From the IMG/VR virus record IMGVR_UViG_3300048883_000431, positions 1-64,000 of that record: a DNA stretch of 64,000 bases. The stretch is one strand, 5' to 3'. The notes beneath the pieces were generated by a model, which was given only the letters and a program-made list of their open reading frames with translations, searched no databases and was not told where the DNA came from. The first letter of the stretch is position 1, and every line of letters starts with the position of its first letter. Positions 1 through 51,531 of the stretch are shown in pieces. This DNA is from a virus. The translations under genes and the position numbers were made by a program.

Positions 1-2
1 TT

Positions 3-275
3 GCAGGCATCGCTACCGCCACATTTCGTGCTGTCACGGAGCCACAGGCGAACATCCTTGTGGGACTGACCGTGGAGATGCGGGACAACCTAACATTGAT
101 CGAGCGGAACACACGGATGACCGCAGAAATTCTCGGCGGTGACGTTCTAGGTGCCTTGGCTGCGCAGGGAGCCAACGCACAGAATCAGGCGGCGGGGGCT
201 CCCTCAGCCCAGCAAGCGTCTGTGAACGACCGAGAACTGCTGGACGAGGGCTTTGCTGCTGATGGGAACCTCTAA
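3..275 (+). CDS. C-terminal end of a tape-measure-like protein (5' end outside window); paralog of 43527..50195
   Basis: Frame from nt 3 reads AGIATATFRAVTEPQANILVGLTVEMRD...; 38/57 aa identical without gaps (manual count) to the TMP segment at 49920..50090. Confidence 0.8.
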   Translation, partial: AGIATATFRAVTEPQANILVGLTVEMRDNLTLIERNTRMTAEILGGDVLGALAAQGANAQNQAAGAPSAQQASVNDRELLDEGFAADGNL

Positions 276-313
276 GACTATACTCACATAGGCACGAGAC
301 CCAGGAGGACAGC

Positions 314-382
314 ATGGCAAACCAAGACGTACGGCACTACCCACAGGTCTTCAATGTTGCTGCGGCCGCAGACGCCGACTAG
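314..382 (+). CDS. 22-aa mini-ORF (leader peptide or gene remnant)
   Basis: TATACT at 279-284, strong SD AGGAGG, MANQDVRHYPQVFNVAAAADAD* (read manually). Confidence 0.35.
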   Translation: MANQDVRHYPQVFNVAAAADAD

Positions 383-467
383 GCAAAGGAACCTTTCGGG
401 AACACCTGTCGGTACATCCCTCCCGGCGGGCCGACTCGTCACTGTACTATGAACGAAGGGGCATATT

Positions 468-1859
468 ATGGCTCAGCCGGACGAACGTGACATTCTACTA
501 TCGCAGACTACGGTGCCCACGTTTACAGCGAACGTGTACACCTCGTCTTGGGTCCGAGGGGCAGACTGGGAACGAGTGGTTGGTGTGATCTATTCCAACC
601 AGGCCAGCATCGCGTCTGGGTTCAAGATAGAGCAGTCTATTGACCGGTCAACGATCTTGGACACGCAAACCTACACCATAGCTGCGTCAACAGGTACCCG
701 AGTTGAGGCCCAGGTCGTTGCCTCGTGGTTCCGGGTATCGTTCGAGCATGGTGGTGTAGCCCCCACAACCTTCCAGCTAGAGGCGTACGGCAGCATTGCG
801 GTTGTTGCCAGTTCCTTGCTAGGAAGCTCTGTAACTGTTGCAGGAGCCGCTGCCGAAGACGCTGCGGTAGTTGGTGATCCGGTACTTACTGGTGGTCGTT
901 ATGATTCCAGTGACAGATCGCTAGACGATGGTGACGTAGGCGCACTTGCGGTCACTGCGGCTGGCGAGGTCAAGATTTCAAGCGGCATAGGCGCTACGGG
1001 TCTTGGCAAAGCAGTCGATGGTGTCGGTGGTGCAACAGATACTGGAATCGCCGTTCTCGCCCTGCGGGATGATGCCCTTACAGCATTGACGCCGGTTGAC
1101 GGTGACTACGTGCGGTTGCGCGTGGATGCTAACGGCGCATTGTGGACACGCGACGACATTCTCGAAGCGGTCGTATCGGGATCGGAACTGCAAGTTGATG
1201 TTGTTACCCTACCAGGTGTAAGTGCCGAAAATGAGACTCCGGGAAGCGGCATGCTTATCCAGGGGGATGATGGTGGCGCAATGGGGGGCAACGTCAGGAA
1301 TATAGCAATCAATACTGCTGGACACCTACAGGTCGATACCACCGATGTTGTTCCGGGTACTGGCGCAACCAACTTGGGTAAAGCCGAGGATGCTGCGCAC
1401 ACTAGTGGCGACGTAGGTGTGATGGCGTTGGCCGTCCGTAACACCATCTTGGCTTCGTTGAGTGGCGCTGATGGCGATTATAGTGCGCTGCAAGTCGACG
1501 ACAACGGCGCGCTGTATCAGGTTCCAGGCGATCATATCGACATGGTATCGGTTGCCGGGACACAGGCGACTGCTGCGAGTACTTCCGTGATTTCTGCTCC
1601 GGGCGTGGGCAAAGCGGTCAAGATTCTGGGCGGGAACTTCCAACAGAACGCGGCCAGTCCTACCAATCCGCAACGCATCGCAATCGAAAATGGAACGGGC
1701 GGCGCAGAGAAATTCGTGGCGCGTCTCTCGGCGAATGATGGCGCAGGAATCGGCTTCTCGCATCCTGTCATCATGTCCGCGAATAACGCTGTGCATCTGG
1801 ATTCCGACCAAGCCGATTCGTTCATCTGGTCGTTGACCTACACCATCGTGGATATGTAA
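468..1859 (+). CDS. Putative virion/tail-associated protein with internal repeats
   Basis: 463 aa, G/A/D/T/V-rich; repeated unit AT(G/N)LGKA.D...D.G...LA.R...L....DGDY..L.VD.NGAL; follows the TMP-like ORF. Confidence 0.6.
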   Translation: MAQPDERDILLSQTTVPTFTANVYTSSWVRGADWERVVGVIYSNQASIASGFKIEQSIDRSTILDTQTYTIAASTGTRVEAQVVASWFRVSFEHGGVAPTTFQLEAYGSIAVVASSLLGSSVTVAGAAAEDAAVVGDPVLTGGRYDSSDRSLDDGDVGALAVTAAGEVKISSGIGATGLGKAVDGVGGATDTGIAVLALRDDALTALTPVDGDYVRLRVDANGALWTRDDILEAVVSGSELQVDVVTLPGVSAENETPGSGMLIQGDDGGAMGGNVRNIAINTAGHLQVDTTDVVPGTGATNLGKAEDAAHTSGDVGVMALAVRNTILASLSGADGDYSALQVDDNGALYQVPGDHIDMVSVAGTQATAASTSVISAPGVGKAVKILGGNFQQNAASPTNPQRIAIENGTGGAEKFVARLSANDGAGIGFSHPVIMSANNAVHLDSDQADSFIWSLTYTIVDM

Positions 1860-2156
1860 ATGGCTACGCATCGAGACTATAAGATCGTCCGGTTCTCGGT
1901 GGATCGGGCGGCCGTGCGATTCTTCGAGGGTGAATACCAAACACCGGTCGATGATCCTAATATCGGGGAGTTGGCGACTGATCCGGTGTATGTGCGTACT
2001 AGTGGGGGTGATCTAGTCTCATACGACTTCGCCTCGGATTGCACATACGAACGACTGGTGGATTTCCTGAACGACAAGCTGTCATCCATAGGCTCGTTGG
2101 ATAGCATCCCTGAACAGGTCCGGGTGCGTGAGCCGGACCTGATAGAGAAGACTTGA
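1860..2156 (+). CDS. Hypothetical protein
   Basis: 98-aa ORF abutting both neighbours. Confidence 0.6.
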   Translation: MATHRDYKIVRFSVDRAAVRFFEGEYQTPVDDPNIGELATDPVYVRTSGGDLVSYDFASDCTYERLVDFLNDKLSSIGSLDSIPEQVRVREPDLIEKT

Positions 2157-3235
2157 TGCGCCATCTTAGCGACGAACATTTCGATCAGCCTCTCATGCAG
2201 ACGCTAGTGCAGGCGCACGCTAATACTGCGCGTGGCCGGGAGCAGCTTTGCATCGCGGACGACGTTCCCGAGGGCCGCAGCATCATTGGGCTGCACCGCA
2301 ACCGCATGATTTGGCTTGCGGATCAGCAATATCCTGGCTGGCTTGGGGCGCAGCGACAACTATGGGAGGAACGACGCGCGGGGCGGCCGCACAGGCTGGT
2401 CGCAGACATACGGTGCGGCAACAAATTCACGGCGCGACTGCACGCATTGCAGCAGCAGGACGATCTGCACCCCTCTCTGCTCAGATCGTATCTGCGCTGG
2501 CGTCAGCACGGACTTCCGTATATCCCCGGCATCAGCGTGCGCACGGCCTACGCAGACTCAGCGACCCACTACCCTGACCCGAATCCAGAAACCACGAGCG
2601 TAGACGGATACGTATATCGCTACGTGCCGGGGTCTACGTGGGCGAGTCTCCGCGACGGTGCCGGGAATGCGGTCAATGCTGGCTATGGATGGTTCTACCC
2701 GACCTACCTGGACCCTGGCTCATCCTCCGGCCTGTGGGATTTGATACTACGGTCATTCTTTCTGTTCGACACGAGCGCTATAGGTGCAGGGTACTCCATC
2801 GACGCGGCCACGTGTAGCCTGTACGGCATGAGCGGGACAGACGGCGGGGGCCTCGCGCCAAGCGGGAATATCTATGCTTCCAACCCGGCCAGTAATACGA
2901 CCCTCGTCAACGCAGATTACGCGGCTGTCTCTAGGGTGCCATTTTCCGATGCCATCACCTACGCCGCATGGGATATATCAGCCTACAACGACTTCGCCTT
3001 CAACGCAGCCGGGCTGGCGGCCATTGATCCCGAGGGTATCAGTAAATTCTCGGGGCAGAGCATCGCTGACGCGACTGACACAGAGCCGACGTGGAGCGTT
3101 AACGCTAATTCCTACACGCGGGCACGAAGCGCCGAATACACCGGCACCACGCAAGACCCCAAATTGGTGGTGACTTACACCGTCAGTAGTAGCTATCGCG
3201 GCTTCATTGATCGGCTTCTTCTAGGGGTGGGCTGA
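2156..3235 (+). CDS. Putative structural protein with C-terminal DNRLRE/CBM96-like beta-sandwich
   Basis: RSFFLFDTSAI...IDAATCSLY...PKLVVTY pattern typical of DNRLRE-like domains. Confidence 0.55.
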   Translation: MRHLSDEHFDQPLMQTLVQAHANTARGREQLCIADDVPEGRSIIGLHRNRMIWLADQQYPGWLGAQRQLWEERRAGRPHRLVADIRCGNKFTARLHALQQQDDLHPSLLRSYLRWRQHGLPYIPGISVRTAYADSATHYPDPNPETTSVDGYVYRYVPGSTWASLRDGAGNAVNAGYGWFYPTYLDPGSSSGLWDLILRSFFLFDTSAIGAGYSIDAATCSLYGMSGTDGGGLAPSGNIYASNPASNTTLVNADYAAVSRVPFSDAITYAAWDISAYNDFAFNAAGLAAIDPEGISKFSGQSIADATDTEPTWSVNANSYTRARSAEYTGTTQDPKLVVTYTVSSSYRGFIDRLLLGVG

Positions 3236-3250
3236 TCTCGGATCGCTGGA

Positions 3251-3586
3251 GTGGACATACACGACATGATTAGTGCTACGGAAATAGCCCGTGATAAGGT
3301 TCTGGAACTTCTTGGTGATGAGTACGGTGAAGGGTACGGACTCAGGGTTAGGGTAAGTGGTGGTGGATGTAGTGGTATGCAATATCAGTTAGGATTTGAT
3401 ACACCACAAGATGGAGATAGAGTTGTTGACGAAGGTGGTCTACTTTTGATGGTAGATATGAAGTCATTGATTTATCTCAATGGTTCCGTAGTAGATTATG
3501 CAGAAGGTCTTATGGGTGCAGGTTTCACAGTAGACAATCCCAACGTAAGGTCTTCGTGTGGGTGTGGTGAGTCTTTCAGTGTCTGA
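3251..3586 (+). CDS. iscA: A-type Fe-S cluster carrier (IscA/ErpA/HesB family)
   Basis: LRVRVSGGGCSGMQY, GSVVDY, NPN..SSCGCGESF motifs. Confidence 0.95.
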   Translation: MDIHDMISATEIARDKVLELLGDEYGEGYGLRVRVSGGGCSGMQYQLGFDTPQDGDRVVDEGGLLLMVDMKSLIYLNGSVVDYAEGLMGAGFTVDNPNVRSSCGCGESFSV

Positions 3587-3652
3587 ACGCGTGGGCGATA
3601 TAGGAGCGTGCGGTGCCTCGGCACACCGTATGCGTAGTCGGTCTCGGTCATG

Positions 3653-4213
3653 TCAGGCCTCCAGAATGCTGTAGTCGCCCATGCGGTCCATCTCGTCGAG
3701 GTGGAACCAGTACCAGGCCCCTGACTTGGTGGACTCGTTCTTCTTCCGGCGCGTGTCGATGAGATGATGGATAGGGGCCTGGTAGACGCCAGTCGGGTAT
3801 GCGTCGGGCGGCGGCGGCTGGCGGTACTTCCGGGCGCGTGCACGATCCACCTCTGTAGGTTCTCCAGATTCGACTGCCAGAACCAGCTTCACAGGGATTT
3901 GGAAGTAGTCCCCGTAGATACGGTAGTCCTCGGAGCGTTTGCCCTCCACGCTGAATCCGAACACATGCCCGTAGATGTCCCAGCTCACGGTGTGCTCGTA
4001 TTTGACCTCGACCGCGACCGGACCTCGGGGGCCCACCACCTGGATGTCGGGCCTGCAGACCCTGACGCCCCCTGCGTCGACGTAGTGGTGCGTCCCGATG
4101 CGTAGAGAGGTATGCCCCAAGCGGTTGCTGAGAGCCATGAAGAGGTCCTCGTGGCGTTCCCCCTGGTCCCTCTGGCGTTCCCAGTCCGCGTCCTTGGTGC
4201 GGGCGTCCCTCAT
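3653..4213 (-). CDS. Putative PD-(D/E)xK nuclease
   Basis: RPDIQV...VAVEVK catalytic-type motif. Confidence 0.55.
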   Translation of the reverse strand: MRDARTKDADWERQRDQGERHEDLFMALSNRLGHTSLRIGTHHYVDAGGVRVCRPDIQVVGPRGPVAVEVKYEHTVSWDIYGHVFGFSVEGKRSEDYRIYGDYFQIPVKLVLAVESGEPTEVDRARARKYRQPPPPDAYPTGVYQAPIHHLIDTRRKKNESTKSGAWYWFHLDEMDRMGDYSILEA

Positions 4214-4224
4214 GTCGGACTCCC

Positions 4225-4368
4225 CTAGTCGCGACGGCTGTCGGCAAGGTAGTAGACCGCGAACAAGCCGAGAAACACCAGGACGCCCACGACGAGCACA
4301 AGGAGTTTGGCCCCCAGCGGCAAGGGCACCAGCGTTTCGAGCGGTGCGACGGTCACTGCGGTACTCAT
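4225..4368 (-). CDS. Small membrane protein (47 aa)
   Basis: MSTAVTVAPLETLVPLPLGAKLLVLVVGVLVFLGLFAVYYLADSRRD; one TM segment, AAGGA SD. Confidence 0.5.
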   Translation of the reverse strand: MSTAVTVAPLETLVPLPLGAKLLVLVVGVLVFLGLFAVYYLADSRRD

Positions 4369-4369
4369 G

Positions 4370-4477
4370 TCAGTCCTTCTCCCGAGATGAACGTATGAGG
4401 TGACGGGCAGCCCAGGATATGAGCACGGCGTACACGGAAATGACGATCCAGCAGCCAGCGGCTTGGTACCAGGTCAT
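4370..4477 (-). CDS. Small membrane protein (35 aa)
   Basis: MTWYQAAGCWIVISVYAVLISWAARHLIRSSREKD; ATGA overlap with upstream ORF. Confidence 0.45.
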   Translation of the reverse strand: MTWYQAAGCWIVISVYAVLISWAARHLIRSSREKD

Positions 4478-4737
4478 GCGGGGGTATCCTCGCACTTCGA
4501 GACTCTGTCCGATATGGAGCTCGTCAGGGAGTGGCAGGCGGGACACTTCACGTGGAGGACGTAGTCTTCCCCGTGGCCGAACACCATCACCGCAGAGGGT
4601 TCGCGTTTGGGCGGCAGTAGGAAGGAGGGATCGGTGCCCTCGATCTCCCACAGTGTGTGGCAGGTCTTACAGAAGGCTTGGAACCCAGCGTAGTCGGGTC
4701 CGATGGGCTTGCGAGTCGTCTTGATGAGCTTCGCCAA
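4474..4737 (-). CDS. Zinc-ribbon protein
   Basis: CKTC...CPAC pair; GGAGG SD before TTG start. Confidence 0.55.
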   Translation of the reverse strand: MAKLIKTTRKPIGPDYAGFQAFCKTCHTLWEIEGTDPSFLLPPKREPSAVMVFGHGEDYVLHVKCPACHSLTSSISDRVSKCEDTPA

Positions 4738-4882
4738 CGTGGAGCCTCCAGATTGTGTGGGAATGATACCACACCCGCCGCGTCTTGGGGTATCATCTTG
4801 GCATACGAAAGGGGGCCGACATGCCGGTTATGACTGACTGCGATGGTGTGGGCTGCACGGCGCGGGAACACACACAGGAGAG

Positions 4883-5263
4883 ATGAACATGTCGAGTGAG
4901 AGATACGTTCAGGCGAGAGACTACACCGGGAAGGCCACGGGCTTGGTGCGGCTGGGGTCCATCACGGCTCTGGACAACGCCCCGCTGCCGGATCGTCGGG
5001 CGGGAGAGTACCGACTCCACACGGTTAAGGCGGAGCCGCCCGACTGGCACTGGGAGGTGCACGGCGTCGACCAGAAGTTCCCCGACCAAGGCTACACGGC
5101 TCGCGGGACGCTGACGATCTTCCGGGTGAACTGTGGCAAAACCGATGGCGTGGGTTGGGGCAAGAACCCAGGTAACGCGGCCCTGGCGGCGCTGGAGCAG
5201 GCGGCAAAGCTGTCGAGACTAGGCATCGACGACCTTCTCGCGAAGGCCGCCGTCACGCTCTAG
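4883..5263 (+). CDS. Hypothetical protein
   Basis: AGGAG SD, 126-aa ORF. Confidence 0.55.
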   Translation: MNMSSERYVQARDYTGKATGLVRLGSITALDNAPLPDRRAGEYRLHTVKAEPPDWHWEVHGVDQKFPDQGYTARGTLTIFRVNCGKTDGVGWGKNPGNAALAALEQAAKLSRLGIDDLLAKAAVTL

Positions 5264-5945
5264 AGGTTCTTGACCTGTTGCGCAAGCTGCTCGCGTATAG
5301 TCACGTGCGTGCCTCCCCGGAGCCGACAGCGTAGCCCAGCATGTAGCCGCCACACCAACGCCGATGCCTCTTCCCCTTCCGCCCCTTCGGGCAGAGCGTG
5401 AGCGCCTGGATGAGTAGAGCCTCCGTGCCCATGAACGCGTTGCGCCCGTGAGCGTTCGCGTGCTTTCGCCCCAGCTTGTACCCCTTACCCATCTGTCTCC
5501 TCCTCCGAGTCCGCCTCGACGTAACACGTGGCCTCAAGAATCGCTCCCCACTCGTGGGGCACTAGGTATCGTGTCATCCTCCGTCCACCTCACTGTGTAT
5601 TCGCTTGGGTCTGCCACGACGTCGAGCGCCTCCTCCGTAGGGAAGCACTGGATTCCGTGGAGGTGTGCGTTCTTGTCGTGCCATTCGACGATCACCCACA
5701 TGGCGGTCCTTTCTTACCCCTATAGTATACCCCAAGCGGACCCGTCCGGGCGGTAACTGTGGCACAGCTCGTTCTCATCAGGGTACCAGGGCATCGGTTA
5801 TCTCCAGTCACCGGGGTTGTGCGGCCATTTGAGCGCTAGGTGGTCCGCGATCACCTTCGTCGGCGTCACGATGTAGGGCGGGACCGGCGATCTCCACCCG
5901 GTTTGCAGCACCTTCCGCGTGTGCGACACGACGTACATCCTCATG

Positions 5946-6161
5946 TCACAGGTCCCTTCGCCACGACTGGGGGAGACTAGCGGGGTGGTTGTGCGTGTAG
6001 GGGATGTGGAACTCGAACGTCGAACTGATCCAGCTCGGGAGGTAGAAGCGGGCACCGTAGAGGGACACGTATCGTTCGCCCTTGTCCCTGAAAACCCGCA
6101 GCGTCCATACGTGGTGGTCCCTGACCTTCTCCGACCGTATGTAAGGCGCGCCCTGGCTCAT
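5946..6161 (-). CDS. Hypothetical protein
   Basis: Overlaps dnaB stop (ATGA), 71 aa. Confidence 0.5.
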   Translation of the reverse strand: MSQGAPYIRSEKVRDHHVWTLRVFRDKGERYVSLYGARFYLPSWISSTFEFHIPYTHNHPASLPQSWRRDL

Positions 6162-8371: not shown

Positions 8372-8416
8372 GCCTTTTTCTTTCTGTGAGAGGCTCCTCG
8401 TTGAGCATGGCCCACA

Positions 8417-9049
8417 CTACGGGAGCAGATCAAACGCTCGGTTCACCCAGCCATTGATGAACGTGAGTTGTGACGGGTCTCGCTTCACGATCCCTGCATA
8501 GTAGAGCATCTGCCCATGTGCTAGGGATACGACTGCCGCCTGGACGAAGCTCTCGTTTCGTCCATCAGCATCCATGGTTGTGTACGAGTTGACTCTGGCG
8601 GCTGTGCCGGGGCCATACGTACCGTCCGCTGACGTACCTACAAGTGCTTGTAGCTTTCGCACGCCTGCCTTCAGAAGTCCTGTCCCGCCGTTGACTTTGA
8701 GGTCATAGAGTTTGCGTGCCACTCGCAGGCTGCTCACGTCGGTGACGTGTACTCGCCGTGAGGGGTCTGCCGGTTTGTAGAGCCATCCGAAGTCGCCGTA
8801 GAAGCTGGTCACGCCGTCTTGGATGGCCTGCATAGGCTCATACAGGCTGAGGTCTATCGGACCCTCACCCCAGTCCGAGCGTGATATAGCATCCACGTCT
8901 GCCCACCACCTCAGCTTGGGGTGGTGCACCCGACTCACCCCACCCACAGTCTCACCTCCGCGATCTCTTGGGTTGTTCGTCCATGTGAGCAGCCCACCTT
9001 CGGATTCGATGGTAGGCTCGAATATCTCTCGCATCCGTGAAGCGTTCAT
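8417..9049 (-). CDS. Glycoside hydrolase family 108 endolysin with peptidoglycan-binding C-terminus
   Basis: SEGG...NPRDRGGET.GG, ADGTYGPGT, FINGWVNR. Confidence 0.85.
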   Translation of the reverse strand: MNASRMREIFEPTIESEGGLLTWTNNPRDRGGETVGGVSRVHHPKLRWWADVDAISRSDWGEGPIDLSLYEPMQAIQDGVTSFYGDFGWLYKPADPSRRVHVTDVSSLRVARKLYDLKVNGGTGLLKAGVRKLQALVGTSADGTYGPGTAARVNSYTTMDADGRNESFVQAAVVSLAHGQMLYYAGIVKRDPSQLTFINGWVNRAFDLLP

Positions 9050-9516
9050 TCCGTTTGCTCCTTTCCTAGCCACTCCCAGGTTCCGAGCGCCGGGCGCTTG
9101 CCTCCGGTGTAGAGGTTGGCATGGCCGGACGTAACCATGGCGCGGTTGATGTCTGTCATGGTTCCGTCCTCTGCTGAAGATAGTGGATCGGTCCACAGAG
9201 AGACCATGTACCTCCCGTATTTCCCGGTACGCTCATCAATGTCTCCCGAGCGTCTACGGATTTTGTGGGTTTGAACGATGATCTTCTCGGGGCGGTGTGT
9301 AGAGGAGTTGTGTAGGAACGCACTGAGCGCATTCTTGGCCGCGATCCCCTTCGACTTCTCCGGCTCTGGAGTCCGTGAGTGGGACTCCGGCGTATTGATC
9401 CCGTACAATCGCACTCGCCGTTCGATCAGGACGCCAAACCCGAGGTCCATCGTCATGTCCAACGTATCTCCGTCGATGACTCGGAAGGATTTGACACCGT
9501 AGTAGAACAGGTTCAT
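9046..9516 (-). CDS. Thermonuclease (SNase-like) family nuclease
   Basis: RVIDGDT, RVRLYGINTPE, GKYGRY, IN..MV..GHA. Confidence 0.9.
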   Translation of the reverse strand: MNLFYYGVKSFRVIDGDTLDMTMDLGFGVLIERRVRLYGINTPESHSRTPEPEKSKGIAAKNALSAFLHNSSTHRPEKIIVQTHKIRRRSGDIDERTGKYGRYMVSLWTDPLSSAEDGTMTDINRAMVTSGHANLYTGGKRPALGTWEWLGKEQTE

Positions 9517-10160
9517 TGGAACGAATCTCCCATTCGTCGTAGCATGTGCGCTTTCGCCTCCTGTTTGATTTCTCCCCACTCCCCGTTACCGGATGTTTCC
9601 AGGCGTTCGAGTATTTTGGCAGGGACGTGTGTTTTTTCAGCGGCGGCTTCTATCCCGAACCCCATCGCCAATAGGTTTGCCGCTTCCGCCAGTTGTTCGC
9701 GCACCGCATCTTCCGGTGGGGGAGCTACGGGTGGTGGTGGCGGGGGCGGAGAAGTCTCTACTTCCAAGCTCGCGCGGGCCGTCTCGACGGATTGTGTCAG
9801 AGTATCAGCGGATTCTTTGAATGCGTCCACCTCCCCTGTCTTCACGGTGTCTATCTGTTCAGCCATCGCCATCATGTCCTGCGCGACCGATCCTAGACTT
9901 TTTTGCCCAGCTAGGACAAGTGGGATCGTCTTGTAGAGGTACACTGTCAGTGCTGTGGCGGCGGCGGAAGCGGTAATGAGCGCGGTGACCCCTCCCATAT
10001 CGGTGGTATGTAGGAGTGCAAGCCAGATCACCAGAGTCCCGAGGAGTTTCCCAGCCACGAGCAGCGTCGTCTGCGCCGTCCTCGTATCGGGGGTCGCGAA
10101 GGGCACGTCCGGCTTTTCTACGGGGACCGTGCGGGCAGTGCTGTAAGATGGGTGTGCCAT
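9513..10160 (-). CDS. Membrane protein (2 TM, coiled coil, Pro linker), possibly lysis-associated
   Basis: Two hydrophobic segments; two genes upstream of the GH108 lysin. Confidence 0.5.
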   Translation of the reverse strand: MAHPSYSTARTVPVEKPDVPFATPDTRTAQTTLLVAGKLLGTLVIWLALLHTTDMGGVTALITASAAATALTVYLYKTIPLVLAGQKSLGSVAQDMMAMAEQIDTVKTGEVDAFKESADTLTQSVETARASLEVETSPPPPPPPVAPPPEDAVREQLAEAANLLAMGFGIEAAAEKTHVPAKILERLETSGNGEWGEIKQEAKAHMLRRMGDSFQ

Positions 10161-10768
10161 CAGACCGCCTCCCGTAGCTTCTTCACCGCGTTCCCGTAAG
10201 CCTGGTGGACTGCCTGTCGACTAACGCCGCCTTCCCGCTTCGCTACGGCCAGCGGCTTGTGGCCCTCCGCCTGCGCCCAGGCACGCCTCCACATCAGGTC
10301 GGGGATGTCCGCGCGCGCAAGGAGCTGTTCGAGTTCTACCCGCGCGGTCCCCTCGCCCTCGGCCCAGAACTCGGGGAACTGATCGGCTCCGAGTATCTCG
10401 TCGTCCGTGTTGGTGAAGTCGACGTCGACGTGCTTCGGGAGCGTCGCTTCCCCCCGGAGGACCTTACGCCAGAACCTGTCGCCCAGGATGAACCCGCCAC
10501 GGTTGCTGCGGGCGGCCTGTACGGCGGCCCACTTGATGTAGGGGTGGAGATAGGCGGTGAGCGGCACCCCGAGGGAGGGGTCGTACCGCTCGTACATCTT
10601 CAGAACTATCTCCCAGACATCCTGGATTGTGTCGTCGATCTGGTCCTGCCGGTTGCGGTTACGCAGAATGCGGGCCACGACCGGCTCCAGATACGCCCTG
10701 AGTTCTTCACAGACTTCCGCCGTCATGCACGCCCCCCGCATGGTGGGTGTCCACCATAAGTATGCCAT
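10160..10768 (-). CDS. Sigma-70 family RNA polymerase sigma factor
   Basis: Region 2 DDTIQD...ERYDPS.GVPLTAY; region 4 HTH GVSRQAVHQ...AVKKLR. Confidence 0.8.
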   Translation of the reverse strand: MAYLWWTPTMRGACMTAEVCEELRAYLEPVVARILRNRNRQDQIDDTIQDVWEIVLKMYERYDPSLGVPLTAYLHPYIKWAAVQAARSNRGGFILGDRFWRKVLRGEATLPKHVDVDFTNTDDEILGADQFPEFWAEGEGTARVELEQLLARADIPDLMWRRAWAQAEGHKPLAVAKREGGVSRQAVHQAYGNAVKKLREAV

Positions 10769-10783
10769 GCCTCCGGCCCACGG

Positions 10784-11203
10784 TCAAGTCGGTTCCCGCG
10801 TTATGCGGGGCGGGGACGGTCGTCGAATGTCGCCCCCCGGTTCGTCCGCCAGGGGGTCGGTGAAGGTACCGTTCTCGACCATGAGCGCGATCAGCGCGTA
10901 GCCCAGTATGTCCATCCACGTGTCGCGTAGTGCTTCCCCGATGACCTTCGTCTCACCGCCGTTCTTGAATCCCTCGTAGAGACGCGCGATCTTGTCGTTG
11001 AGGCGGACGTAGATTCCTAGCTGAGGTCCCGCCACCTTCGGGTCAATTCCAGGGACCCCCCACGCCTCCGCGAGATGGGCGATGGGCGTCTCCATGATGT
11101 TAGTCGGGCCGTAGTCATGCTGCTTGCGGAGCATCAGCTCGCGCATATCCGCGAATACCTCGTCGAGCCCCTGGTTGAACGTACGGGGGGCGTCACTTGC
11201 CAT
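10784..11203 (-). CDS. Nucleotide modification-associated domain protein (DUF1599/Nmad1-like)
   Basis: RKQHDYG, VRLNDKIARL, LRDTWMDILGYA. Confidence 0.8.
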   Translation of the reverse strand: MASDAPRTFNQGLDEVFADMRELMLRKQHDYGPTNIMETPIAHLAEAWGVPGIDPKVAGPQLGIYVRLNDKIARLYEGFKNGGETKVIGEALRDTWMDILGYALIALMVENGTFTDPLADEPGGDIRRPSPPRITREPT

Positions 11204-49500: not shown

Positions 49501-50195
49501 CGGCCACCAAGACCCTCCTCGCGGATACGACCGACAGGGTTGACGAAATCCTTGTGCAAAACAAGGGACTCAACAAGTCCATCACCCCGGACGTCCTGAC
49601 TAACCTCAGCAAACTGGACCCGGCACTACTGCAGAACGCTAAGAACCTCACGGCACTCCAACGCCTAACCATCCTCAAGAACGCGGGGGCCGTACTACCA
49701 CAGAATGAGTTCGGGGATACGATCCCCCAGGGGACGACGGAATTCCTACAGACCCTCGGAAACGAGTTGGCCACGCGTGCGAAGCTCGGTGGGCAGCTCC
49801 AGGACGCGGCCGGGGAGGTCGAGGGGTTCAGCGAGGCCATCGCGGGTGTCCAGCCGATCTTCGACGGGTTCCGGGAGGCGCTGGGACTGAGCACTGGCGC
49901 GGTGAAGGGCGTGTCCGAGATCGCGACGTCCACGTTCCGCGCTGTCACCGAGCCACAGGCGAACCTGTTGCTCAGTGCCACCATCGAGATGCGCGACCTG
50001 CAGGTCCAGATCGAGTTCAACACACGGCGCACTGCGGAGGTCCTCACACACGACATCCTCGGCGCGCTGTTGGCGAACGGGTTCAACGCGGGCGCAAGAG
50101 AGCCAGAGGACGTTCCGACAACCCCCGCAAACCTGAAGCTCGGTGACCTGAAGCAGGGGGCCGAGCAGGTCCAGAACGGTCAGGGAGTCCTCTGA
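43527..50195 (+). CDS. Tape measure protein
   Basis: 2222 aa, Ala/Glu/Leu helical, GIAKQEVEILDELGI motif, follows the chaperone pair. Confidence 0.92.
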   Translation: MALVRIAIQAHSTGFDKAARDVNRAVTDAENALTQHAQGALANLERQADNALIAVRGVTAKISQEGKIEDLPRAFEEATRTFKDFAEASRGGVQNLKLMKQTINGITFEFDAMANAAENVGRTFTAAGQKAVDQARDQLELEEKIIRARERSAQAFTASRAQIDRAGGVLASDMGQQAAINDPAVQAARIASGQARARQTTAADALAVGQGTIGRGEHVADVRKEIRVQTELNRKMAKALALQEQLNDAFNFGNRTAATRAKTKALNKQNVELREGQDRVVALRKAVVSLDRVLEEGDTEVDALTHSMEFLTAESGKAAKKLASLQIALDRLNVKGGGSKVDRQALKEKIEEQQALLRSIEKVRRTGLGGSIPGPGARPFGDLESKSLRELQVEIDKLDKKNQKAADSTQELRTEIHELRGEELEKADEAVRVLDRRLTDVAETIETKDVTALRKLELALERSSKEFDDLRIKADKAEDKLRIALEAGIEEPARQAEKELKDLEKQLDRVTTAGERTTREMRELALSTIRSGGDVSNIDAPGFRKEGTGGGRGGGGRAQRGTVDFTDVKREVDKKNPFGGFSRFGSKVLIITGLVYTALGLAQAAFRGFTFAANSVAKAERFSDTLNTYINLSEESGTGLESLGRVFNALGGTVDRFSVVTAAAKARMSGLAEETIPQIAQAARILSRAVGVEVTEAFDRLSRGIAKQEVEILDELGIIVRLNDALEKWALKNGRTVESLSAQERQVAFANEVLGVLAARYAQIGTQMTRTSDKLDIFKARWADLSITMSHGLRGWAAVGLGLGNFAANILEGVFPATLKMKTRMELLDSVVQNFGTSLEGVMGRRGTIADAIAQIELMSAGIRAASPGSLLYQERLDEMNRVLGKMVVTFPELNTVIRSTNFLLKGSTDELRNSLIVLQSEFEVLRKASNEKRGKAFASLQLEIVILTEQLQGAIEKRDDLFLSAPFEFKAMAKARNEVALLTNELSSLQGMFGGGNLTGAKLGPVGEAALTNLTQIFQGLDVGTRLGGVGGVDSDQRKRVANRVEQLMSSLGPSVEQGILTERAAEGIRGQSVAFISGDRNEAMRAVSQMLDILSEGVENAAPDATKAFMFDLFNDLRESALRAFVDAGGRTGGSGLDPTKTLKEIIESRRPGGQRSFDIPIPFTEASRRGRAALSGSIVPLGGIKAATAQATLAETLAKMVIEGEGIAKSNTELQGLTAAFIKGERARLAQEILDIRELTQLKVTAKEQAIEEARITELIRKATTKSKQTELDISETTNSIIRNRVSTFAQSAGNRPVGKLGKVVEGLQADVLTREGDLSAQVLAAQQKEVEARLASESATARKAVADFQATISTTVKGFTEELSDLRAAIRESDNETGETVTALSDGITEMTELQTRAAAKAKELETLITNDLSKLMTGDIPAAVKAMLTTLFAVTDTVGDDVRARESRFPALFRAGSTGSESSLRNLGDARTRTADKQGDFARLFNLTGLGDISGISGLSAGRRQLETQASGFENAAGPLRKVADLGEARAAKVLDLMNQATRAGRGQGDEFMELANIYNSLEEESEKLREELAALQVQADATRVTGTDLLADSATRLAGALGTNAARAAREASRSLEALTGTPEKMDRLRAIMGGRAADVSANLGGRGDEFAFGSPAEVDRRRLTLETQVEQLTKRRDALITSTRTAKEGGASSESLSGVRAQTHELSRQILTRQVILDDLLVQSDAIRASIVAGDFAKLDMDIQKVVESGSVETITRNMGFLNDVLDEMNDLTDDERGGIKKLIDDLDGAKKAAQNARELADELKRIKSVSSARQGAIRAVGSVAGGRAGSVLGSIAGIVGGVTSFSSIAATRTASHESNLAERDAGTINQGTFTNNESAINTVATMGKIAAGAELVGQGISIATTAWSMFNARAEAAKQKVREIQEAANAMGDAIAGGIAAGFDEGAQSFDDFMRNFLLNEFRTNLAETVLETSGIRAFTDDLAATKTLLADTTDRVDEILVQNKGLNKSITPDVLTNLSKLDPALLQNAKNLTALQRLTILKNAGAVLPQNEFGDTIPQGTTEFLQTLGNELATRAKLGGQLQDAAGEVEGFSEAIAGVQPIFDGFREALGLSTGAVKGVSEIATSTFRAVTEPQANLLLSATIEMRDLQVQIEFNTRRTAEVLTHDILGALLANGFNAGAREPEDVPTTPANLKLGDLKQGAEQVQNGQGVL

Positions 50196-50302: not shown

Positions 50303-50389
50303 ATGGCGAGTCCAGAGGAACGCGACGTTGTCGTAAACCAGATCACGGTGCCTACGTTCACCGCAGATGTATGGAATGAGTTGTCGTAA
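50303..50389 (+). pseudogene. 28-aa truncated paralog of the N-terminus of 468..1859
   Basis: MASPEERDVVVNQITVPTFTADVWNELS*; 15/24 identical to MAQPDERDILLSQTTVPTFTANVY; TAATG overlap with next gene. Confidence 0.75.
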
Positions 50390-51531
50390 TGGCGAACCTG
50401 GCGTGGACCAACGCGGGGATACCCGTATCCTACAAGATCAACGGCGTCAACATCCGCGAGGAGTTCGGGGTTGAGATGTCGTTGCCCAACGCCCTTATGC
50501 CCGGCGTTCGCGGACGGACATCCAATCCCTCCCAGACGCACGGGGAGGTTGACAGCGGGGCCTTCTACGGCACACGCCAGTTCTCGGTGACCGGGCGGAT
50601 CATCGCCACAACCCACGCGTTGTTCACGTCCCAGATGGACGAGTTCACCGCGTGGCTTCGACTGGAGGACAACCTCCAGCAGTTCTCGCTTCGGGGGCGC
50701 ACCCTATCGGGTATGCGACTGGAGATCGCGGGTCACGGGCTGGCGGAGCCCAGGACCCTCATCGTCACCTACAGTGGCAATGCCACGATCAGCCCGATCT
50801 CCACCGCCCACTTCAAGGGGCGTGCGTACGACTTCGGGTTGGGGCTGAAGGCGTCCTACCCGTTCTGGCTCACCCAGGAGGAGACGGACGCCCACAGGGA
50901 CACGAGCGCTCACCAGTGGATACGGGTACCGAAGGACACGTCGGGGGCCTTGGGCACGTCCCAAACATACCCCGAATACACACTCGACGGGCCGGTAAGC
51001 GGAGCGAATGTCACCATCGCGCACGGGCGATTCGGACTGAGCGTTCGGTTCAACGACCTGTCGCTGGCGGAGTCGGGTAACGGACTGGCGTTCACCGCGA
51101 CCAACATCTACGGTGACTCGACAGTGGGGACGTTCCAGAACCAAGTGGAGCTCACCGCTGTTGCGTCGACGGAGGGCGAGGGCTCGGGGGAGAGCGTGGG
51201 GCTGCACGGGTCGGCAAGCGGCGGGTCCGGCTCACTCATCAAGCTCCCCATCCGAAACGCGCAGTCACTGGCCGTGAACCCGAATGACTCGCAGGACGCG
51301 GACTACTTCAACGGCGCAGTCGGAACCTTCGGGTGCTTCTTCAAGCCTAACTTCGACATCATAGCGGGCGTGCAGGACAGCGAGAAGCGTAACGTCCTCC
51401 TAAACCTGGGTGCGGCCACGGCGGCGAACAACATGCAGATACGGTTCGCGGATTCGTCGGACAAGCGTGTTGTGGAGCTAAGGACGGTTAACGGCGCGGG
51501 GACGGTCCTGAGCAAGACGAATAACTCGTAA
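50389..51531 (+). CDS. Distal tail protein (Dit), N-terminal part, ending in a half LamG domain
   Basis: INGV...FGV..P....G.VDSGAFYGTRQFSV...YPFW...PEYTLDGP; ends GTFGCFFKP... Confidence 0.7.
   Translation: MANLAWTNAGIPVSYKINGVNIREEFGVEMSLPNALMPGVRGRTSNPSQTHGEVDSGAFYGTRQFSVTGRIIATTHALFTSQMDEFTAWLRLEDNLQQFSLRGRTLSGMRLEIAGHGLAEPRTLIVTYSGNATISPISTAHFKGRAYDFGLGLKASYPFWLTQEETDAHRDTSAHQWIRVPKDTSGALGTSQTYPEYTLDGPVSGANVTIAHGRFGLSVRFNDLSLAESGNGLAFTATNIYGDSTVGTFQNQVELTAVASTEGEGSGESVGLHGSASGGSGSLIKLPIRNAQSLAVNPNDSQDADYFNGAVGTFGCFFKPNFDIIAGVQDSEKRNVLLNLGAATAANNMQIRFADSSDKRVVELRTVNGAGTVLSKTNNS

Follow-up and report, generated by a model that had tools for sequence, protein, structure and literature searches.

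An apparent second tape measure-family gene end beside a shared three-gene module at the start of a viral contig

The window analysed here is a stretch of 64,000 nucleotides that makes up the first part of the IMG/VR contig IMGVR_UViG_3300048883_000431 (112,229 nt, classed as linear and 92% complete), and its position 1 is the contig's first base. The window opens within a reading frame, here called TMP', that is truncated by the contig end and not by the edge of the window. Behind it lie a spacer, a module of three genes (X, p98 and p360) and, as the first gene of the contig backbone, an Fe-S assembly gene of the IscA/HesB type; the main tail operon is found some 40 kb further along (Table 1). 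In that operon, three features identify the longest frame as the tape measure protein (TMP): its size, a match to PHROG 3779 ("tail length tape measure protein", 2.8e-14) and the presence of a Dit-like gene (PHROG 33) behind it. Between the two sits a stub ORF whose TAA stop overlaps the ATG of Dit (TAATG).

Table 1. Features at the left end of the contig and in its main tail operon, in window coordinates
Feature	Position	Strand	Remarks
TMP' end: last 90 codons and stop, open at the contig start	3..275	+	conserved block 9-179
Spacer TMP'-X	276..467	+	holds a 22-codon ORF; graph fork at 440
Gene X, 463 aa, beta-rich	468..1859	+	internal repeat domain at residues about 166-350
p98, 98 aa	1860..2156	+	middle gene of the module
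p360 (called from ATG 2156, 359 aa)	2153..3235	+	graph forks at 3236
IscA/HesB-type Fe-S assembly gene	3251..3586	+	Pfam PF01521, PHROG 17776; first backbone gene after the module
Main TMP, 2222 aa	43527..50195	+	block 49920-50090 is the counterpart of 9-179
Stub ORF, 28 codons	50303..50389	+	15/28 identical to the start of gene X
N-terminal Dit piece, begins MANLAWTNAGIP	50389..51531	+	reference for the Dit-like start in the module's alternative right flank

The end of TMP' carries the similarity to the C terminus of the main TMP that the first-pass annotation had reported, and both the ungapped match and its coordinates were reproduced: in BLASTP with the 90-aa query, 38 of 57 residues are identical, without gaps, to main TMP residues 2132-2188 (E = 8e-21). 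At the DNA level, the two blocks agree at 108 of 171 bases (63% nucleotide identity), third codon positions are equal in only 25 of the 57 codons, and 17 of the identical residues are written with different codons. Self-BLASTN of the whole 112,229-nt contig gave no repeat linking its two ends. With 63% identity and no such repeat, terminal redundancy, or a direct terminal repeat, is ruled out, as the many synonymous differences had already been taken to mean. By these comparisons, window 3-275 reads as the genuine 3' end of a second, diverged TMP-family gene. That its N-terminal part might be encoded at the 3' end of the contig was considered and rejected: no coding-like frame leaves the contig there, and P0001, the longer form of TMP' described below, matches two places of the contig only.

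The extension of TMP' upstream of position 1 can be followed in other data. An exhaustive HMMER search of 1.84 billion cluster representatives returned four true relatives of the 90-aa end: P0001 (594 aa), 100% identical to window 3-275 over its last 90 residues; P0002 (2217 aa) and P0005 (1805 aa), the TMPs of a 117,857-nt and a 105,703-nt contig, respectively; and P0008 (693 aa), which is partial. The only contig found to carry P0001 is one from JGI, 11,327 nt long and named K in the following, and the protein starts 1,509 nt ahead of window position 3; over its residues 6-563 it runs colinear with residues 1664-2188 of the main TMP (31.6% identity; E = 3e-51). TMP' accordingly spans at least 594 codons. 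That the gene is complete at 594 aa, as the initial Met of P0001 could suggest, was rejected: partial proteins from JGI begin at the first start codon past the contig edge, and a Met start is therefore no sign of completeness. The JGI/IMG edge proteins P0013, P0014 and P0041-P0043 open at whichever ATG, GTG or TTG comes first past the contig edge, and in each case this is an internal Met, Val or Leu of the full-length counterpart.

The first-pass annotation had placed a second TMP upstream of the window and had proposed to measure it by extending the contig. The continuation was found, with a frame that reaches at least 594 aa through P0001, is colinear with the main TMP and is accompanied by a Logan contig running 9.3 kb beyond position 1, but the known part, of 594 residues, falls short of the 1805-2222 aa of the full-length TMPs in this phage group. 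No N-terminal part of TMP' turned up among the proteins of 708-2256 aa when the middle of the main TMP was used as the query, and no relative of P0001 of similar length was found; in the metagenome contigs, viral contigs, GenBank phages and species genomes, neither TMP' nor its relatives gave a match. P0001 has no Pfam or PHROG match of its own, and the PHROG match of the main TMP and its relatives falls in the N-terminal third, a part missing from the known TMP'.

Kinship with the TMPs is seen in the colinear homology, which amounts to 31.6% identity over about 560 aa and to 67% in the last, 57-aa block. No other part of this TMP family is as well conserved as the latter, which TMP' has in common with the main TMP, and P0002 and P0005 share the C-terminal quarter with TMP', including the FNAxAEAAKQ and ATFRAVTEPQAN motifs. 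The genomic position of TMP' is not the one between chaperone and Dit: downstream are X, p98, p360 and IscA, and upstream the contig ends. According to the protein searches, P0002 and P0005 are single long genes, whereas TMP' is known for its last 594 residues and adjoins X, not Dit. Identity to P0002 is 43.5% for the main TMP and 37% for P0001. TMP' is about as distant from the main TMP as the TMPs of the relatives are; the distances thus point to another phage lineage as the source of TMP', rather than to a recent internal duplication.

For X, p98 and p360, no Pfam or PHROG family was found. The C-terminal ~200 aa of p360 form a beta-sandwich, CBM-like domain, similar in the ESM Atlas to beta-sandwiches of the CBM96 type and to small proteins of viruses. 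The repeat domain of X occurs in many viral contigs. Two loci with such a protein were inspected: at L022, its gene comes after a tail fibre gene, and at L020, it is found ~2 kb downstream of a gene resembling those for tail fibre assembly. Structure modelling gave poor results (pLDDT 30 for p360 alone and 48.6 for X with 14 sequences), and Foldseek against the PDB gave no match at E <= 0.001. Going by position only, the module proteins are probably parts of a distal-tail fibre or adhesin.

The same trio in the same order, coding for proteins of 420, 94 and 351 aa, is found at 8389-10978 of a distant viral contig, IMGVR_UViG_3300005683_000177 (L026), where X and p360 are each 37% identical to those of the window. 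There, the trio lies between RecT-type recombination genes and downstream structural genes, not after a TMP, and the gene upstream of it is unrelated. Since the trio has been kept together outside the tail operon in L026, the module appears to be an old and self-contained unit, able to occupy different places. In the hydrothermal-vent data described below, swap points were seen inside p360 at 2518, 2618 and 2712 and dense clusters of variants at 2944-3054, and one protein variant, P0041, begins at p360 residue 157, in agreement with the internal swap points; the C-terminal CBM-like domain appears to be exchanged apart from the rest of the gene. Two smaller features were noted in this region. 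One contig of vent run X4 has 8 extra bases (GGAACAGT) between the stop of X and the start of p98 (window 1858/1859), and the 22-codon ORF of the spacer (314-382; MANQDVRHYPQVFNVAAAADAD) begins 6 nt after a perfect AGGAGG and has no counterpart behind the main TMP.

The history of the module is connected to the main tail operon by the stub. In an all-against-all comparison of every open frame of the 112-kb contig, the short frame behind the main TMP matched the first 28 residues of gene X and formed a second colinear block beside the TMP end. The order of TMP end, spacer and start of X is therefore common to two loci of the contig, and these two, the TMP end and the X start, are the only paralogous blocks tied to TMP'. 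We infer that X has disappeared from the main operon except for the 28 codons of the stub between TMP and Dit; the block consisting of a TMP end and the following start of X would then be a diverged copy of a junction formerly present in the main tail operon. The comparison, which had been suggested in the first-pass annotation as a protein-level self dot-plot, also covered the genes expected of a complete tail: no second Dit, Tal, tail tube or chaperone was found on the 112-kb contig. The idea that the genes at 468-3235 make up a second tail module, giving "two tail modules" in one genome, finds no support in this.

The first 4 kb of the window were also found in hydrothermal-vent metagenomes, and Logan contigs of four vent runs (X1-X4) were aligned to window 1-6000. 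Contigs without differences to window 1-488/493 reach 1.1 kb (X1), 9.3 kb (X2) and 1.6 kb (X4) upstream of position 1. All four runs have a fork at 440, upstream of which other contigs continue for at least 2.5 kb with unrelated DNA. Behind 3236, alternative sequence is present in three of the four (X2-X4), with two different downstream sequences in total, and the X1 backbone contig starts within p360, at 3078. The borders of the module fall at gene boundaries, 28 nt before the start of X and 1 nt after the stop of p360, and the 2.8-kb segment X-p98-p360 is common to several genomes with different flanks, at about 99% identity.

The depths of these contigs are uneven. In X1, the TMP' flank has a depth of 6.5 and the backbone contig (from 3078) one of 16.3, a ratio of 0.40; with the backbone contig covering 3202-6000, the corresponding depths are 44 and 76 in X2 (ratio 0.58), 48-55 and 98 in X3 (about 0.5-0.57) and 45 and 86 in X4 (0.52). 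The module (440-3236) is covered at about 25-190, above the TMP' flank and the backbone, and the other left flank at 34.5 in X1 and 148.7 in X3, 1.5-2x the backbone. From a TMP' flank at 0.40-0.58 of the backbone depth, it follows that at most about half of the backbone genomes carry TMP'. Depth arithmetic for pairing the left with the right flanks was tried and discarded, both pairings fitting by construction.

The commonest alternative right flank, read together with the preceding bases of the window, gives TGATG and then codons for MNLSWANDGI; the Dit starts that we compared it with read MANLAWTNAGIP in the window and M[AP]NLAWNN[TE]GIPVSY in the relatives. With such a Dit-like start in the alternative flank, the module stands directly before Dit in at least one other vent genome. 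Together with the stub in the main operon, this flank makes TMP-X-p98-p360-Dit the likely ancestral order. The 30-base loose ends were absent from the 112-kb contig and from the viral and metagenome contigs searched, and Dit-based searches for relatives found none.

Our evidence that TMP' and the backbone share a genome comes from protein look-ups and contig depths, not from reads spanning the module. Variants of window genes 8417-9049 (210 aa, 98.6% identical) and 9046-9516 (156 aa, 93.6% identical) are found on an 11,327-nt JGI contig, and it is solely by this equal size of 11,327 nt that K is identified as the carrier of both P0001 and the two gene variants. From its geometry, K is expected to end near window 9,760-9,816, and this range holds both genes and cuts the next. 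K would then represent a diverged strain that again joins TMP' to the same replication arm, so that the order of TMP', module and replication arm recurs. For the same wrong turn to be taken twice into the less covered branch is less likely, and real linkage is thus favoured over a chimera. Moreover, the 112.2 kb of the contig and the 9.3 kb upstream add up to ~121.5 kb, close to the size implied by 92% completeness. The last 90 aa of TMP' are identical in the two JGI contigs despite their differing backbone genes, and identical ends also fit one donor phage misjoined twice. Weighing these observations, we find it fairly probable that TMP' truly resides in this genome, or in a subpopulation of it.

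The explanation that we prefer, and to which we give an even chance when it is taken as a whole, places TMP' in the left arm of this phage's genome, at least in a sizeable part of its population, as a piece captured with an exchanged module. Recombination would have inserted part of the tail operon of a relative beside IscA and the replication genes, and this part would include X-p98-p360 and no less than the final ~1.6 kb of the relative's TMP. The main operon would have lost its own copy of the module, the 28-codon stub excepted, and the module proteins would then be supplied from the second site, TMP' having come along with the module as a passenger. The segment X-p98-p360 (440-3236) would, in addition, be exchanged almost unchanged among co-occurring phages. 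The breaks ~1.5-1.6 kb upstream of position 1, seen in K and X4, are a hint of where the captured piece may end on its left side. What is observed is the homology, the continuation of the gene upstream, the gene order recurring in a second strain and the several flanks of the module; that a capture took place, that the module serves the tail and that TMP' is a passenger are indirect readings of these patterns.

The most serious rival is the mundane one, raised already in the first-pass annotation, that the contig end is chimeric and that no genome with two TMPs exists. Chimeric metagenomic contigs, formed at sequence common to strains or related viruses, are a known assembly artefact. In such a case, a phage B with the order TMP'-X-p98-p360-Dit', about half as abundant, would coexist with a phage A in which the other left flank, the module and the backbone follow each other, and the assembler would have gone from the backbone of A through the 2.8-kb shared module into the TMP' of B, stopping at the next fork. 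Several features are those of assembly chimeras: a shared segment longer than read pairs, forks at both of its ends (440 and 3236), steps in depth, with the TMP' flank at 0.4-0.58 of the backbone and the alternative left flank no shallower than it, and a second continuation in canonical order, in which the right flank opens a Dit homologue as expected of a relative with TMP'-module-Dit'. On this reading, both derived junctions, that of the other flank with the module and that of the module with IscA, would come from one insertion and B would keep both ancestral junctions, and the contig ends only 440 nt past the module, where X3 forks too. A coverage break or misjoin near 3600 had been named as a possible refutation; what the graphs show are the forks at 440 and 3236 and the halved depth of the TMP' flank. 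Unlike in assembly chimeras, however, the join is met again in another contig, that of a diverged strain: K, whose backbone proteins have 93.6% and 98.6% identity, also links TMP' with these backbone genes, a carriage established by the size match of 11,327 nt only. Nor was a Dit-like protein found on any 11,327-nt contig, and the missing genome length agrees with the 9.3 kb upstream. We therefore consider a chimera rather unlikely, while taking it seriously.

A bolder alternative goes beyond the capture of a gene end and sees in TMP' a complete and functional second tape measure, heading its own set of distal-tail genes and serving two tails or tips or a recombination reservoir. No stop interrupts the frame over at least 594 codons, two strains have the same last 90 aa and the 57-aa block is the best conserved part of the family; the 9.3 kb upstream could accommodate a gene of ~2000 codons, and X retains the N-terminal peptide that is also left as the stub in the main operon. 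Yet the searches among proteins of 708-2256 aa brought up no N-terminal part, two data sets (X4 and K) break ~1.5-1.6 kb upstream of position 1, the contig has no second Dit, Tal, tube or chaperone, the module is followed by IscA instead of Dit, and its association with tails is itself derived from position. We regard such a gene as improbable; equally improbable is the corresponding picture of a ~122-kb siphophage with two full-length TMPs, having two types of tail or tip or swapping tips via its two TMP-X junctions. There is finally the reading in which the 90-aa ORF represents a domain similar to the TMP C terminus, carried by a protein which is no tape measure and belongs to the module as a regular fourth gene. 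P0001 is indeed free of Pfam and PHROG matches, and it is always seen beside the module, but its homology to the main TMP is colinear over about 560 aa and not confined to the last domain, the gene upstream of the module in L026 is unrelated, and the graph fork at 440 parts TMP' from the module; in our view, this is very improbable.

The case has both parallels and differences among known systems. The mosaic exchange of distal-tail and receptor-binding cassettes between related siphophages is part of general phage mosaicism, and the 2.8-kb block resembles such cassettes in its borders at gene boundaries and in its identity of about 99%, against about 30-70% for the neighbouring genes. It differs in that the block lies here outside the tail operon and is accompanied by the end of a second gene of the TMP family, and in that the main operon keeps only a 28-codon stub of it. 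In the cluster S mycobacteriophages (Marvin and relatives), two minor tail genes lie atypically in the right arm, off the tail operon (PMC9872701), and the present case is similar in that presumed tail-end genes are displaced into a nonstructural arm. The abstract of the same paper (PMC9872701) mentions no second TMP-type gene, and the tail role of the displaced genes is in our case deduced. A brief literature search turned up no report of phages with two tape measure genes, the pairs reported being of chaperones only, and it is unusual to find a gene of the TMP family, or much of one, away from the tail operon.

The consequences depend on the linkage. Should it be true, part or all of a second TMP lies beside a mobile module and outside an operon that holds only a stub of that module, giving a clear snapshot of sets of tail-tip genes moving between and within phage genomes and raising the question of a second TMP-type protein in tail assembly or DNA delivery. 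Should it be false, the end of this IMG/VR "high-quality" contig comes from a neighbouring phage, a documented case of concern to the users of such records.

The base composition varies along the contig, and the left arm shows a compositional patchwork. GC3 is 0.63 in the TMP' piece, 0.56-0.69 in the module, 0.33 in IscA and about 0.82 in the tail operon, and the genes up to about 10 kb, with GC3 of 0.62-0.69, are similar to TMP' and the module. The value of 0.33 for IscA compares with averages of about 0.75-0.85 for the genes of the genome, and IscA looks like a recently acquired auxiliary gene. Further along the replication arm, the 156-aa nuclease gene at 9046-9516 (minus strand; "micrococcal nuclease" according to one source) differs between strains by 6-9% at the protein level, while the adjacent gene at 8417-9049 differs by 1-2% only, in three of the four cluster variants; the nuclease gene is a locally divergent allele. 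Close to the other end of the contig, an ORF-poor region at 111393-112006, just before the 3' end, holds three copies of a 43-56-nt repeat, about 280 nt apart, and in tetranucleotide composition, no region of the genome deviates more strongly than contig 105-110 kb.
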